In this document: piece after piece, positions 139 through 61,733 of the stretch
Position numbering within the stretch: position 1 is the stretch's first letter
Layout of the letters: each line of letters starts with the position of its first letter
NCBI GenBank assembly: GCA_963806085.1
Contig: CAWDWR010000003.1
Coordinates: 943,498 to 1,007,497 of the forward strand
DNA: 64,000 nucleotides
Source of the DNA: an uncultured Acidobacteriota bacterium
GTDB lineage: Bacteria > Acidobacteriota > Vicinamibacteria > Vicinamibacterales > JAKQTR01
Direction: 5' to 3'
Translations under genes and position numbers: made by a program
The notes under the pieces: model-generated
Databases searched by the model: none
What the model saw: only the letters and a program-made list of their open reading frames with translations
Told to the model about the DNA's origin: nothing

Positions 139-270
139 GGTGTGAGCCGTGAGCAGTCGTCAGTCGGCTCTGCGCGGCATGGAGCTGGCTGCTGGGACCC
201 CGCGCGGCCCCGCGCGGGGAGCTGGTGTCCATGCCCAGGATCCGACTGATGACTGCTGACGGCTCACACC
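139..270. repeat. 132-nt compound hairpin with heptad-periodic arms in the murD-ftsW spacer
   Basis: Left arm 139-167 is ggtgtga gccgtga gcagtcg tcagtcg g. Right arm 242-270 is ccgactg atgactg ctgacgg ctcacacc. They are complementary at 27/29 positions. Inner stem is GGCATGGA/TCCATGCC, and the apex is the palindrome CCCCGCGCGGGG. Confidence 0.7.
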
Positions 271-348
271 CGGGCCGGCTGCCCGGGTCGTCCGGTGCCG
301 CTTCCTTTGTCGGTGCAAACGGAAGCGACTTTAGGGTTCCGCACACAC

Positions 349-1529
349 ATGGCACGCAAGCTCAAGTCCGATCGGCTGCTGTTCCTCACGACGCTGGTGC
401 TCGTCGCCGTCAGCATCGTGATGGTCTACAGCGCCTCGAACCAGATGGCGGCGGAGGCCGCTGTCCGGCCGAACGCCTTCCTGGTGAAGCAGGCGCGTCT
501 TCGCCGTGCATCGGCCTGATCGCGATGTTCATCGCGATGCGGGTCGACTACGAGCGCTATCGCGACCCGCGCGTGATCCTGCCGCTCGTCGGCGTCACGT
601 TGCTCGCCCTGGTCGCCGTCCTGGTCGTCGGCCCGGAGATCAACGGCACCCACCGCTGGTTCGCCGTCGCCGGGCGTGGGCATCCAGCCGTCGGAGCTCG
701 CCAAGCTGGCGATCATCCTGTTCACGGCCGCGGTGCTCGAGCGGCGGATGGATCGGATCGACAAGGTCGCAGTACGCTCTCGGGCCCGATCGTCGTCGTG
801 CTCGTGCCGATGGTGGGCCTCATCCTGCTCCAGCCCGACTTCGGCAGCTCCGTGGCCCTGCTGGCCATCGTGGCCGTGATGGTGTTCGCGGCCGGCCTGC
901 CCTGGCGGTACATCGTCTACGGCCGCGCTCGTCGGTCGTGCCGTTCGTGATCGGCTGTCGCGGTGATCGCGCCATTACCGCGTCCGCCGGCTGACCGCGT
1001 TCCTGGACCCGTGGGACGACCGCCTCAAGGACGGCTACCAGGTGGTGCAGTCGCTCATCGCCGTCGGGTCGGGCGGCCTGACGGGGCGCGGGCTCGGCTA
1101 CAGCGTGCAGAAGCTCGGGCTACCTGCCCGTACCCGCACACCGACTTCATCTACGCCGTGGTCGCCGAGGAGCTGGGCCTGATCGGGGCATCGGTGCTGC
1201 TGGCGTGCTTCTGCGTGATCACCTGGCGCGGGCTGAGGACGGCGTCGCGCGCGCCGGACGCGTTCGGGTCGTTTCTCGCGCTGGGCCTCACCGCGATGAT
1301 CGCGGTGCAGGCCTTCGTCAACATGAGCGTGGTGCTGGGCCTGCTGCCGACCAAGGGCATCACGCTGCCGTTCATCAGCGCCGGGGGGTCGTCGCTCATC
1401 ATGAGCCTCGCCGGCATGGGCGTGCTGCTGAACATCTCGCAGCGCGCGTCGGCGACGTACGTAGAGGAGGCATGGTGCTCGGCCGCACGCAGCGCGTGCA
1501 CTTCGTCGGGATTGGCGGCATCGGGATGA
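349..1529 (+). CDS. ftsW: FtsW (SEDS peptidoglycan polymerase), frameshifted in this assembly
   Basis: Homologous pieces lie in three frames: [30 protein letters not shown]; [23 protein letters not shown]; [15 protein letters not shown]; LLQPDFGSS; [18 protein letters not shown]...[17 protein letters not shown]. At least 3 frame changes. The 3' end is uncertain because the open frame overlaps the murC start. Confidence 0.8.
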
Positions 1530-2920
1530 GCGGCATCGCCGAGCTGCTCTCGAATCTCGGCTACGCCGTCAGCGGGTCCGACCGGAAGCTGTCGGAGGTC
1601 ACGGCGCGCCTCCAGACGCTCGGGGTGCGCGTCGCGGTGGGCCACGACGCCGCCCACGTCGGCGACGCCGACGTCGTGGTCTACTCGTCGGCCGTGCGAC
1701 CCGACAATCCCGAGATCGCCGACGCCCATCGGCGCCGGATCCCGGTGATCCCGAGGGCCGAGATGCTCGCGGAGCTCATGCGGCTGCGATCCGGCATCGC
1801 CGTCGCCGGCGCGCACGGCAAGACCACGACCACGTCGATGGTGGCGCTCGTGCTCGAGCGGGCCGGGCTCGACCCGACGGCGGTCATCGGCGGCAAGCTC
1901 TCCGCCTTCGGCAGCAACGCCCGCCTCGGGCCGCGGCGAGTACATGGTGGTGGAAGCCGACGAGAGCGACCGCTCGTTCCTGCGGCTGACGCCGACGGTC
2001 GCCGTCATGACGAACATCGACGAGGAGCACCTCGAGGCGTACCGCGACTTCGACGATCTCCGCCAGGCGTTCCTCGAGTTCGCCAACAAGGTGCCCTTCT
2101 ACGGCGCGTGATCGCCTGCGTCGGACGACCCGCACGTGCGCGGCCTCGTCCCGCGCATCACGCGCCGGGTGATCACGTACGGGCTCGACTCCGCCGACGC
2201 GGACGTGCGCGGCACGGCGTGCGTGCAGGAGGGCGGCACGTGGGCCTGCCAGGTCGCTGCCGGGCCCGGGCCTGAAGGACGCTGCCGGGCTCCGCGAGCC
2301 GCCGGCGTCGCCGCTGTGCACGCTGCGGCTGCCGATCCCGGGCCGCCACAACCTCCAGAACGCGCTCGCGGCGGTGGCCGTCGGCCTCGAGCTGGGCATC
2401 GACGCCGGCACCGTGGCCGGCGCCCTGGCGGCGTTCCACGGCGCCGACCGGCGCTTCCAGCGCCTCGGCGAGGCGGCCGGCGTCCTGGTCATCGACGACT
2501 ACGGCCATCACCCGACCGAGATCCGCGCGGTGCTCGACGCCGCGCGCGCCTCGCTCGGCCGGCGCCTGATCGTCGCCTTCCAGCCGCATCGCTATTCGCG
2601 CACGGCCCGGCTGATGGACCGCTTCGGGCCGGCGCTCGCGCAGGCCGACGAACTCGTGCTCGCCGACATCTACGCCGCGGGCGAGGACCCCATTCGCCGG
2701 CGTGACCGTCGAGGCGCTGGCCGACGCCATCAGGCCGGCGCTCGGGGGCCGGCTGCACCTGGCCCGCACCCTCGACGACGTCGTCGGCGTCGTGGCCGCG
2801 CTGGCGCGGCCGGGTGACGCCGTCATCACGCTGGGCGCCGGGTCGATCGGCACCGTCGGGCCGAGGGTGCTCGCCGCCCTCGGACCGCCGCGAAGGAGGG
2901 CGGGCCTGACATGTCGGTGA
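1472..2920 (+). CDS. murC: MurC (UDP-N-acetylmuramate--L-alanine ligase), frameshifted in this assembly
   Basis: GGAGG then ATG at 1472. Motifs: [47 protein letters not shown]. Frame changes occur near 1925 (extra g in a G run) and near 2700. Confidence 0.85.
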
Positions 2921-60382: not shown

Positions 60383-60443
60383 CGGACTAATATATCCCGA
60401 TGCGTCGTCGGTGACCTGCTGGTAGTCGCTATCAGGCGTCGCA

Positions 60444-60478
60444 GTTCGCGTCCCGAGCCCCGAATCCCGAATCCCGAA
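60444..60478 (-). repeat. Inverted copy of the (CGGGATT)n array, abutting the tgt start codon in the ddl-tgt divergent spacer
   Basis: The plus strand reads gttcgcg tcccgag ccccgaa tcccgaa tcccgaa ca ATG. The reverse complement is TTCGGGATTCGGGATTCGGGGCTCGGGACGCGAACTGCGACGCC, which matches the 38552 element including its tail. Confidence 0.8.
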
Positions 60479-60479
60479 C

Positions 60480-61733
60480 ATGTCCCCAGCCTTCTCCTTC
60501 CGCGTCCTCCACACCGACGGCGCCGCCCGGCGCGGGGAGATGACCACCGCTCACGGCGTGGTGCAGACGCCGGCCTTCATGCCCGTCGGCACGCGCGGCG
60601 CGGTCAAGGGCATGACGCCCCGCGATCTGCGGGAGGTCGGCGCCGAGATCATCCTCGGCAACACCTATCACCTGTGGCTGCGGCCCGGCGAGCGGTCTCA
60701 TCGCGCGCCTCGGCGGCCTGCACCGCTTCATCGGCTGGGACGGCCCGATCCTCACCGACAGCGGCGGCTTCCAGGCGTTCAGCCTCGGCGAGAAGCGGAC
60801 GATCACCGAGGACGGGATCCGGTTCCGGTCGCACCTCGACGGCAGCGAACACCTGCTGACGCCCGGAAGGCGCCACCGACATCCAGGCGCAGCTCGGCCC
60901 GGACATCGCGATGGTGCTCGACGAGTGCCTCGCCCAGCCGGCCACGGCGGCCGCCGTCAGGGAATCCACCGAGCGTTCGGCCCGCTGGGCCCGGCGCTGC
61001 CGCGAGCGCTTCCTCGCACTCCAGGAACTGGGTGCCGGCGACCAGCAGCTGGACGGGGAGACTCCGAGTCCGAATCCCGCCTCGACCTTGCTCGGCGGCC
61101 GACCGGTCGAAGGGCCGAATCCCGATCCCGTCTGCGGTCACCAACCCCGGCCAGGCGCAGTTCGGCATCATCCAGGGCGGGACGGTCCCGGAGCTGCGGA
61201 CGCTGAGCGTCGAGCGGACCCTGGCCATCGGGTTCGAGGCCTACGCCATCGGCGGCCTCAGCGTCGGCGAACCGGCCGACACGATGTACTCCGTCGTCGG
61301 CCACACGGCCCCGCAGCTCCCGGCCGACCGCCCGCGGTACCTCATGGGCGTCGGCACGCCGCTCGACATCGTCGAGGCGGTGTCGCGCGGCGTCGACCTG
61401 TTCGACTGCGTGATGCCCACGCGCAACGCCCGCAACGGCCAGCTGTTCACCAGCGAGGGCCGGCTCGACCATCAAGAACGCCCGTACGCCGCCGACGAGG
61501 GGCCGCTCGACCCGGCCTGCTCCTGCTACACCTGCCGGACGCACTCGAGAGCGTATCTTCGCCACCTGTTCGTGTCGGGGGAAATCGGGGCGGCGGTCCT
61601 GAACACCATCCACAACCTGCGCTTCTACCTTGACACGATGGCGCGGGTAAGACAGGCTATAGTGTTTGGGACGCTCGAAACACTGAGACAGTCGCTGCAA
61701 GCGATGTTCTCCCGCCCGTTGAGTAACTCATGA
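60480..61733 (+). CDS. tgt: Queuine tRNA-ribosyltransferase, frameshifted in this assembly and carrying a repeat-derived insertion
   Basis: Motifs: [96 protein letters not shown]. The homologous text switches frame at about 60690, about 60865 and somewhere in 61020-61140. Confidence 0.9.
61060..61130. repeat. Intragenic copy of the CCCGAAT-type repeat element inside tgt
   Basis: GACTCCGAGTCCGAATCCCG - hairpin (CCTCGACC...GGTCGAAGG) - CCGAATCCCGATCCCG. It encodes a Pro/Asn-rich segment ([15 protein letters not shown]) where other Tgt proteins have a short loop. Confidence 0.65.

Follow-up and report, generated by a model that had tools for sequence, protein, structure and literature searches.

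Dispersed tandem heptanucleotide repeats have been described in Xanthomonas, where the unit is GGGAATC, and in Nostoc, where it is GGGGA(C/T)T, and in both they are strongly intergenic (Rehm et al. 2015, PMC4692102). The Xanthomonas repeats lie nearest to the end of the upstream gene, often overlap its stop codon, vary between related species at matching intergenic sites and include 70–75 convergent inverted pairs per genome that are able to form a stem-loop (PMC4692102). In both genera the strand that carries the G-rich unit depends on the neighbouring gene boundary: it is the coding strand in the 50 nt that follow a stop and the non-coding strand in the 50 nt that precede a start (PMC4692102). 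The short tandemly repeated repetitive (STRR) heptanucleotides of cyanobacteria were reported by Mazel et al. 1990 (ref. 39 of PMC4692102). Among long simple sequence repeats (SSRs), heptamers are the most frequent according to Mrazek et al. 2007, as summarised in PMC4679880, where a polymerase slippage hypothesis is mentioned and such repeats are described as typical of non-pathogens with large genomes. TAACTGA direct repeats are abundant, intergenic and present in 2–6 copies very near coding sequences in marine Beggiatoaceae, cyanobacteria and Bacteroidetes (PMC4679880). Why seven-base tandem repeats accumulate and what they do has been a question since the cyanobacterial STRRs, and the Xanthomonas study found no function for them. 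Here we analyse a 64-kb stretch of DNA from a soil acidobacterium, referred to as the window, in which tandem heptamers and hairpins with heptamer-built arms occupy eight loci.

Our results provide a third, unrelated, high-G+C lineage, the Acidobacteriota, with dense heptamer repeats (about one element per 10 kb) and many unit families. The comparisons described below favour a reading in which the elements are heptanucleotide SSRs of the STRR or long-SSR type that evolve by slippage and copy-to-copy exchange, with the window as a local sample of a genome-wide and phylum-wide population; we consider this explanation as a whole to be probable.

Period-7 arrays and element turnover

Among exact tandem arrays of at least three units with periods of 5–12 nt, only period 7 is represented in the window, by the five arrays listed here, and a CGGC run of period 4 is the one exact array besides these.

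11866: exact period-7 array, unit AAGAAGC
26965: exact period-7 array, unit AGAAGCC
38558: exact period-7 array, unit TCGGGAT
54267: exact period-7 array, unit CAGTAGT
54332: exact period-7 array, unit CTACTGG

With one mismatch allowed, six period-7 arrays of at least three units were found, compared with 0.1 in dinucleotide-preserving shuffles, and periods 8–12 gave 0–1 arrays. The repeats are real and non-random; the sequence-only reading of the window had named a comparison with shuffled sequence, genome-wide, as a test, and within the window such a comparison came out in that reading's favour. A looser scan of the window gave no loci beyond the eight it had listed, and their coordinates and unit sequences are all correct. 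Seven of the eight are intergenic or overlap just the last ∼9 codons of a gene, and the elements do abut stop or start codons as had been noticed. In the window only the tRNA passes the Rfam gathering score, and at the eight loci there is no Rfam match even at E ≤ 1.

The loci differ in their capacity to fold. Scored on a single strand as the minimum free energy (MFE) of the locus relative to shuffled sequence, four of them are strong hairpins (z = −8.9 at 139–270, −5.0 at 11863–11969, −6.1 at 26962–27078 and −10.1 at 54251–54367) and a short palindrome at 36473–36507 reaches −4.4, whereas local folding was not seen for the arrays at 38552 (z = +0.6) and 60444 (z = +0.8) or for a stretch within tgt (z = +1.5). 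A single architecture had been proposed for all eight loci. This is too strong: three loci do not fold locally, 139–270 evolves differently, and on sequence comparison the eight loci are at least three families, not one.

The signal extends well beyond the window. In 1.97 Mb of Acidobacteriota loci (labelled L001 and so on), gathered around a few genes so that the sites were not sampled independently, there are 109 period-7 arrays, and periods 8–12 give 10, 7, 1, 0 and 1. An inverted partner lies within 250 nt of 47 of the 109 (∼40%). Called spacers account for ∼5% of the DNA and hold at least 54 of 103 arrays; the figure is a minimum, the gene calls being crude. The gene caller, based on G+C at third codon positions, called 61% of the DNA coding and misclassified known cases, and an enrichment by spacer type (convergent, co-directional or divergent) derived with it was set aside.

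The window itself has a G+C content of ∼70%, and its host is, on the evidence of protein and DNA matches, a Vicinamibacterales-like acidobacterium: the best identity of its AccD (80%) is to proteins from metagenome-assembled genomes of Vicinamibacterales (Acidobacteriota), and the nearest DNA found is 86–88% identical at the nucleotide level and collinear across 20 kb. Genes at the loci were identified by Pfam scans of ∼25 window open reading frames (ORFs). Several essential genes are interrupted: tgt (60480–61733) is readable only across three reading frames, the 5′ end of accD (54160–54237) carries a 1-nt insertion relative to three relatives, and ftsW (349–1529) and rnhA (11938–12358) are split, the Pfam match of the latter covering its N-terminal half only. 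These frameshifts are most likely indel errors of long-read assembly rather than marks of pseudogenes.

Three of the four strong hairpins belong together.

11863–11969, − strand: type A heptamer hairpin; (CAAGAAG/CCAGAAG)n, core GGGCCAACTGACGTTCGTCAGAAGCCAGAAG, loop, (CTTGCTT)n
26963–27078, − strand: type A heptamer hairpin; (AGAAGCC)x4.7, nested complementary arms, core GGGCCTACTGACGATTGCCAGAAG
54251–54367, − strand: type B heptamer hairpin; CCAGCAG, (CCAGTAG)x4, 37-nt core, (CTACTGA)x3, CTACTGG, ATGCTGA

These are hairpins of 105–130 nt whose arms are inverted NCAGWAG/CTWCTGN arrays that begin at a stop codon or within one. Their layout on the − strand is common to all three: after the stop codon come, in this order, a purine-rich array (CCAGAAG, CAAGAAG or CCAGTAG), a unique core and a complementary array of CTTCTGG, CTTCTTG or CTACTGA. 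Further CCAGAAG-type elements occur after the M48 peptidase gene in L006 and in L024.

The element at 54251–54367 occupies the spacer between the deoxynucleoside kinase (dNK) stop (TAA 54369–54367, − strand) and accD (ATG 54237), beginning at the base after the dNK TAA and ending adjoining accD, and this spacer was compared in 85 relatives. In 37 of them it is no longer than 50 nt, and those inspected have no repeat; in 34 it exceeds 90 nt, and most of these show the 7-nt period. The units are unrelated among lineages and include GGCTGGG, AGGCAAA, GGGCTCA, GTTGGCA, AACTCAA and TTTTGCA, among others. In the five closest relatives (dNK 80–85% identical) an NCAGWAG element starts at the stop codon in every case, of the CCAGTAG type, like that of the window, in L083 and L084 and with CCAGAAG or ACAGAAG units in L081, L082 and L085. 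The arms covary among four unit types (CCAGTAG with CTACTGG, CCAGAAG with CTTCTGG, ACAGAAG with CTTCTGT and, in L090, ACGGTAG with CTACCGT). A rare exception to period 7 is seen in L010 (9740–9990), where the arms of the dNK–accD hairpin are octamer arrays, TGAGGCAA and ATTGCCTC.

Arm length and element identity both change quickly. The 5′ arm of the dNK–accD element has three units in L083 vs five in the window, and L085 carries a (CTTCTTG)7 run without a partner of equal length. The suggestion that the elements expand by slippage in a 7-nt register is supported by such whole-unit differences between orthologues and by unequal arms. L084 and L085 are 95.5% identical over 4.5 kb and 96–100% identical in the spacer flanks and yet have different elements; the differing stretch runs from the stop codon to CTTCTG and is of the CCAGTAG type in one and of the ACAGAAG type plus core in the other. 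Similarly, a Terriglobia pair of 95.3% identity (L055 and L064) has a GGTAATT hairpin in one genome and a CAGTCGT hairpin in the other. Point mutation cannot yield a complete difference of this kind between 95%-identical genomes, so the whole element must have been replaced.

The 26963–27078 element exactly fills the gap between the convergent stops of an M28 peptidase gene (+ strand, TAG 26960–26962) and an amidohydrolase gene (− strand, 27079–27081), and Tandem Repeats Finder (TRF) scores its array as 4.7 copies at 100%. At this site the three collinear relatives of 86–88% nucleotide identity carry a TCAGTAG/CTACTGG type, whereas the window has the CCAGAAG type together with a core that is shared between sites. 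The 3′ arms of the relatives have 9.7, 5 and ∼2 units, and in L161 the two arms are unequal (3 vs 9.7 units).

The shared core, GGGCCNACTGACGnnnGYCAGAAGCMAGAAG with a CCGG loop, is present in the window elements at 11863 and 26962 and in L081 and L085. The two latter copies, from metagenome relatives, sit in the dNK–accD spacer, a site unrelated to either of the window sites. The recurrence of GTCAGTA/GTCAGTT inside the 26962 and 11863 elements had been correctly noticed, and it reflects this common non-repeat core.

The 11863–11969 element, with an AAGAAGC array of 3.4 units, lies between a pgeF-like gene (+) and rnhA (−), which converge and both end within its arms. In the pgeF-like protein, of 319 residues, the Cu-oxidase_4 domain extends to residue 310 and the tail, KKKQEARSK before the stop, is read from the array; the rnhA product ends in QKKQEARRAN before its stop, likewise read from a repeat arm, and relatives of both genes end in other tails. 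The two tails are alike and rich in lysine and glutamine because both are read from arms of one palindromic element, whose two arms (11863–11892 and 11929–11970) supply the final 9–10 codons of both genes. The convergent pgeF/rnhA junction is not syntenic in the relatives examined, so that they offer no empty-site comparison for this element.

Pairing of a TCAGTAG arm with a CTACTGG arm occurs in several genomes at two unrelated sites (in the window, 54266–54293 against 54332–54361 within the 54251 element; also L161–L163), giving T·G on one strand and C·A on the other. This arrangement has the look of a family trait and not of random decay.

Turnover is also seen at the end of the M48 peptidase gene, where the window has a single-arm array (described below), L006 has a CCAGAAG-type hairpin, L015 and L028 have a GCGCAAG-type hairpin and L004, L008 and L016 have nothing. 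Public metagenomes thus offer orthologous-site series in which elements are absent, present, resized or replaced, and with such series the rates of slippage, arm-to-arm correction and element replacement become directly measurable.

The dNK–accD spacer also contains a conserved extended −10-like motif, TGATAAGCT/TGATACAGT, located 7–10 nt before the accD ATG across Vicinamibacterales (54246–54254, − strand, in the window, and most of the loci L001–L160). This suggests that accD is transcribed from a separate promoter and that its mRNA is leaderless or nearly so. Before ftsW, a CTTTAGGG-like motif is similarly placed (329–336).

GGGAYTC arrays and the murD–ftsW stem-loop

The remaining loci, other than 139–270, are GGGAYTC arrays, one of which survives as an in-frame relic within tgt.

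38551–38584, + strand: single-arm array; TCGGGAC, (TCGGGAT)x3, TCG; TRF 4.4 copies
60451–60479, − strand: single-arm array, unit as at 38551; GTTCGGGATTCGGGATTCGGGGCTCGGG; TRF 4.0 copies
36473–36507, no strand assigned: short palindrome in a divergent spacer; GGGACTA GGGCCTA GGCGCTG GGCGCTA GTCCC
61060–61130, + strand: repeat-derived insertion in tgt; ACTCCGA GTCCGAA TCCCGCC ... GCCGAAT CCCGATCCCG; encodes ETPSPNPAS...EGPNPDP

The 38551 array starts 3 nt past the stop of the M48 peptidase gene and is G-rich on the coding strand, and the 60451 array, in the divergent ddl/tgt spacer, ends at the base preceding the tgt ATG (60480) and is G-rich on the non-coding strand of tgt. The 36473 palindrome lies 14 nt from the start codon of a − strand gene. 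Each of the three intergenic copies follows one of two patterns, a G-rich coding strand no more than 50 nt beyond a stop or a G-rich non-coding strand no more than 50 nt ahead of a start. Exactly four G3 tracts are present in each of the arrays at 38551 and 60451, with loops of 3–4 nt between them, and the resulting G-quadruplex (G4) motifs (G3+N1–7, four times; 38553–38576 and 60452–60475) are two of only five canonical ones in the window. We class the GGGAYTC arrays as relatives of the Xanthomonas/Nostoc repeats with a predicted capacity to form G-quadruplexes. At the orthologous 36473 position L161 has (GGGACTC)x8 and L162 has three units (GGGGCTC GGGATTC GGGACTC), which identifies the window palindrome as a local form of a GGGAYTC array that ranges overall from 2 to 8 units at this site. 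GGGGATT-type arrays are present in the relatives L072 and L090.

The stretch inside tgt had been taken for a further hairpin copy; it does not fold as one (the z-score of +1.5 given above) and is instead an in-frame, repeat-derived insertion in a variable loop. The Tgt loop that follows RERF (61030–61150 in the window) carries from 0 to ∼45 extra residues among relatives, with repeated NEVGPNF/NEVRPHF peptides in the closest of them (L089, L090 and L091). Heptamer arrays seem to have been inserted in-frame into this loop in multiples of 21 nt. Elements that overwrite C-terminal tails and insert in-frame into protein loops will mislead gene callers and assemblers in soil metagenomes.

The fourth strong hairpin is of a different nature.

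139–270, + strand: conserved 125-nt stem-loop between the murD stop (107–109) and the ftsW start (349)

It lies 30 nt past the murD stop, inside the division and cell wall (dcw) cluster, with MurD confirmed in relatives and FtsW, MurC, FtsQ, FtsA and FtsZ encoded downstream. Its basal stem pairs GTGAGCC GTGAGCA GTCGTCA GTCGGCT with CCGACTG ATGACTG CTGACGG CTCAC and keeps the heptad period. The MFE is −107.8 kcal/mol, and the sense strand, with five G·U pairs vs one, is 15 kcal/mol more stable than the antisense strand. The element is near-identical in the murD–ftsW spacer of six relatives (FtsA 75–89% identical), and its apical part varies among them with compensatory changes. In an alignment of the seven genomes, 92.4% of cells are paired vs 31–42% when the partner is slid, and ten pairs are altered on both sides vs 1–3 when slid. 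The observed values were reached by none of 500 shuffles on four of five measures and by 5 of 500 for the number of pair types, and one G·U pair is invariant in 7/7 genomes. Because four of the seven sequences hardly differ, the effective sample is small and the evidence from covariation is moderate.

We read 139–270 as a functional structured RNA that has become fixed, on the sense strand, in the dcw operon, and, judged from this alignment, it evolves unlike the other loci. For the Vicinamibacteria it is a candidate for a new cis-acting RNA of this operon. The basal stem contains CAGTCGT CAGTCGG, and variable arrays elsewhere in the Acidobacteriota (L003, L050, L055, L064 and L071) are built of the unit CAGTCGT; the stem-loop is possibly derived from a heptamer hairpin. 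Directly 3′ of it, at 271–300, lies a second small G+C-rich hairpin, CCCGGGCCGGCTGCCCGGG, and relatives have a hairpin of different sequence at this position.

Elsewhere in the window, the region 39700–42500 has a lower G+C content (62–64%) and few recognisable genes: a hemerythrin-domain ORF was found at 40275–40946, and three other ORFs of the region have no Pfam match.

Proposed mechanism and alternatives

Arrays mostly begin at or a few bases from a stop codon, in short spacers adjoining genes; whole 7-nt units are gained and lost, and one unit variant can take over an entire arm. From these comparisons we infer slippage and conversion. Slipped-strand mispairing in a 7-nt register would resize the arms, and template switching or gene conversion between the two arms would maintain their rough complementarity. 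The same processes, acting among dispersed copies with common arms, could exchange cores and unit types. Elements would then persist beside genes, mostly right after the stop codon, where they are least harmful and may be tolerated. As RNA, the long stem-loops lacking a U-tract could terminate or insulate transcription or protect 3′ ends; however, such roles are not needed to explain their presence.

Several observations weigh against this proposal. Slippage and conversion are deduced from comparison between genomes and not from populations or experiments, and a slippage model leaves unexplained why the unit should be 7 nt. The comparison loci are clustered around a few genes, so that sites are not independent, and the genome-wide number of elements is an extrapolation from a density of about one per 10 kb. 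Some sites are occupied in a full clade (5/5 of the closest dNK–accD relatives and 4/4 genomes at the M28 site), which could reflect selection rather than tolerance, and the strict conservation of 139–270 shows that at least one such hairpin is functional. As regards the unit length, a stop codon (TAG) within CCAGTAG was considered as the reason for a period that is not a multiple of three, and was rejected, as AGAAGCC and GGGATTC have no stop in either orientation.

The alternative that fares best is that the hairpins are primarily selected RNA structures, acting as terminators or insulators without a U-tract, as 3′-end stabilisers or as RNase III sites, with slippage the easiest route to longer stems. 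A stop codon precedes all four long hairpins (with the 30-nt gap at 139–270), the dNK–accD hairpin lies between a stop codon and the −10-like motif, which is 8 nt from the accD ATG, arms covary, some sites are filled in every clade member, and 139–270 is conserved and covarying, with its fixed sense-strand G·U pair. Canonical terminators in the window are not enriched relative to shuffles in three scans (4 vs 5.5, 11 vs 8.0 and 9 vs 5.6), and another terminator type could therefore be in use. However, selection on the RNA is not evident in the strands: when both strands of 28 orthologous heptamer spacers were folded, in which G·U and C·A would differ, no bias was found, the sense strand being more stable in 15 of the 28 with a mean difference of +0.7 kcal/mol. 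The mRNA strand of the window dNK–accD element has a C·A mismatch in every unit, and the antisense strand is the more stable by 9 kcal/mol. The two arms may differ greatly in length, and many orthologous spacers are short, the inspected ones being empty. The stems are not followed by a U-tract, and a canonical intrinsic terminator is ruled out, as no T-run is present 3′ of the outer stems; a terminator scan flags only the inner hairpin of the 54251 element, followed by CTTTCTACTG, and leaves the outer stems unflagged. From the lack of strand bias, the C·A mismatches, the missing U-tract and the many empty orthologous spacers, we infer that selection for RNA hairpins is probably not the main force, and we regard this alternative as possible but unlikely. 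The only two convincing canonical intrinsic terminators of the window, with 10–11 bp stems followed by TTTTT, are at 44317–44341 (−) and 57336–57359 (−).

A further possibility, which is speculative and in our view rather unlikely, is that the arms act as portable homology by which whole elements, unit type and core together, would be copied among dispersed sites through template switching or gene conversion, without a transposase, forming a self-propagating, fast-evolving extragenic class of which the murD–ftsW hairpin would be a domesticated member. It had been suggested that the elements may be footprints of a hairpin-specific mobile or repair process, and a copy-spreading or repair-type process is compatible with the shared core at non-orthologous sites and with the replacement in 95%-identical genomes.

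Movement by an enzyme is possible but improbable. The elements would in that case be non-autonomous, of the repetitive extragenic palindrome (REP)/REPIN (REP doublet forming a hairpin) or MITE (miniature transposable element with inverted repeats) type, and moved by a hairpin-specific enzyme encoded elsewhere, such as a REP-associated tyrosine transposase (RAYT) or IS200-like Y1 transposase. One composite of arms and core does occur at three non-orthologous sites in different genomes, replacement between 95%-identical genomes exchanges elements like cassettes, the breakpoints lying at the stop codon and at CTTCTG, and the CCAGAAG-type elements of L006 and L024 are at yet further sites; REPs are also located at gene 3′ ends. 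Against this, neither target-site duplications nor constant end motifs were found at the five sites inspected (window 11863, window 26962, L081, L085 and L006), the ends grade into the gene's own last codons, and variable SSRs, not a fixed palindrome, make up the arms. The MITE assignment was rejected, as inverted arms are present at these five sites but no flanking duplication is. No transposase was found among the ∼25 window ORFs scanned with Pfam, which is weak evidence.

For the GGGAYTC arrays alone, a regulatory role as G-quadruplexes (or i-motifs) may be considered, as proposed for Xanthomonas GGGAATC and Nostoc GGGGAYT. The two arrays with exactly four G3 tracts, which provide 2 of the 5 G4 motifs in the window, and the agreement of the three intergenic copies with the published position and strand rule (PMC4692102) would fit such a role. 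In relatives, however, copy number is not fixed at four (eight units in L161 and three in L162), three units is the commonest size among the 25 G/C-tract arrays of the sample, and no regulatory role emerged from the Xanthomonas study (PMC4692102). We hold this role to be improbable, and G4 formation cannot be a general rationale, as the NCAGWAG hairpins have no G tract.

That the arrays are chance features or artefacts of error-prone assembly has a negligible probability despite the indel errors in tgt, accD and rnhA, since shuffles fall so far short of the observed number and since dozens of assemblies made independently, some of them from short reads (such as k141 contigs and JGI metagenomes), have comparable elements at matching intergenic sites.

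Comparison with known repeat classes

REPs, bacterial interspersed mosaic elements (BIMEs) and REPINs are dispersed palindromes at gene 3′ ends that vary between strains, sometimes form inverted doublets and are copied from one site to another. A REP is a fixed, imperfect palindrome 20–40 nt long with a conserved 5′ GTAG-type motif. Unlike these, the present elements have arms of variable tandem heptamers, and their ends differ between sites. A clustered regularly interspaced short palindromic repeat (CRISPR) array is ruled out as well, the 7-nt units being contiguous, vs repeats of 23–50 nt with unique spacers. The sequence-only reading had set the elements apart from REP/BIME and CRISPR, and both the form of the palindrome and the repeat length agree with it.

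Hairpin-only, 'I-shaped' intrinsic terminators have been proposed for high-G+C bacteria such as mycobacteria. The present hairpins resemble these in being stable stem-loops after a stop codon without a U-tract, in a window where canonical terminators are not enriched, but their stems are 30–59 pairs long, repeat-built and variable in length, and they are absent from many orthologous sites.

In contrast to the present elements, the TAACTGA repeats lie just upstream of starts, are inverted in 1 of 170 cases and have a single dominant unit (PMC4679880).

Where the first reading had recognised no known class, intergenic heptanucleotide SSRs have in fact been described (the STRRs; Mrazek et al. 2007, as summarised in PMC4679880; Xanthomonas, PMC4692102). 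Like the STRRs and long SSRs, the present repeats comprise several heptanucleotide unit families per genome, and period 7 stands out among periods 5–11; they are arranged head to tail in at least three units, show an excess of period 7, are mostly non-coding and vary in unit number. They differ in that ∼40% of the arrays are in inverted pairs and in that turnover at orthologous sites is documented here. In the literature library searched, there was no account of heptamer or SSR repeats from Acidobacteria or Vicinamibacteria.

Among known repeats, the G-rich heptamers of Xanthomonas and Nostoc are the closest to the present elements. The GGGAYTC arrays of the window match them in unit design and in the strand rule, and two of the three have four G tracts. 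The unit is, however, GGGATTC/GGGACTC rather than GGGAATC or GGGGAYT, and the commonest family here, NCAGWAG, is the one without a G tract. Unlike in Xanthomonas and Nostoc, many unrelated units coexist in one lineage and some elements have a conserved non-repeat core. Intergenic heptanucleotide SSRs as such were thus already known; what is new here is the phylum, the coexistence of unit families, the conserved core and the replacement of whole elements between 95%-identical genomes.

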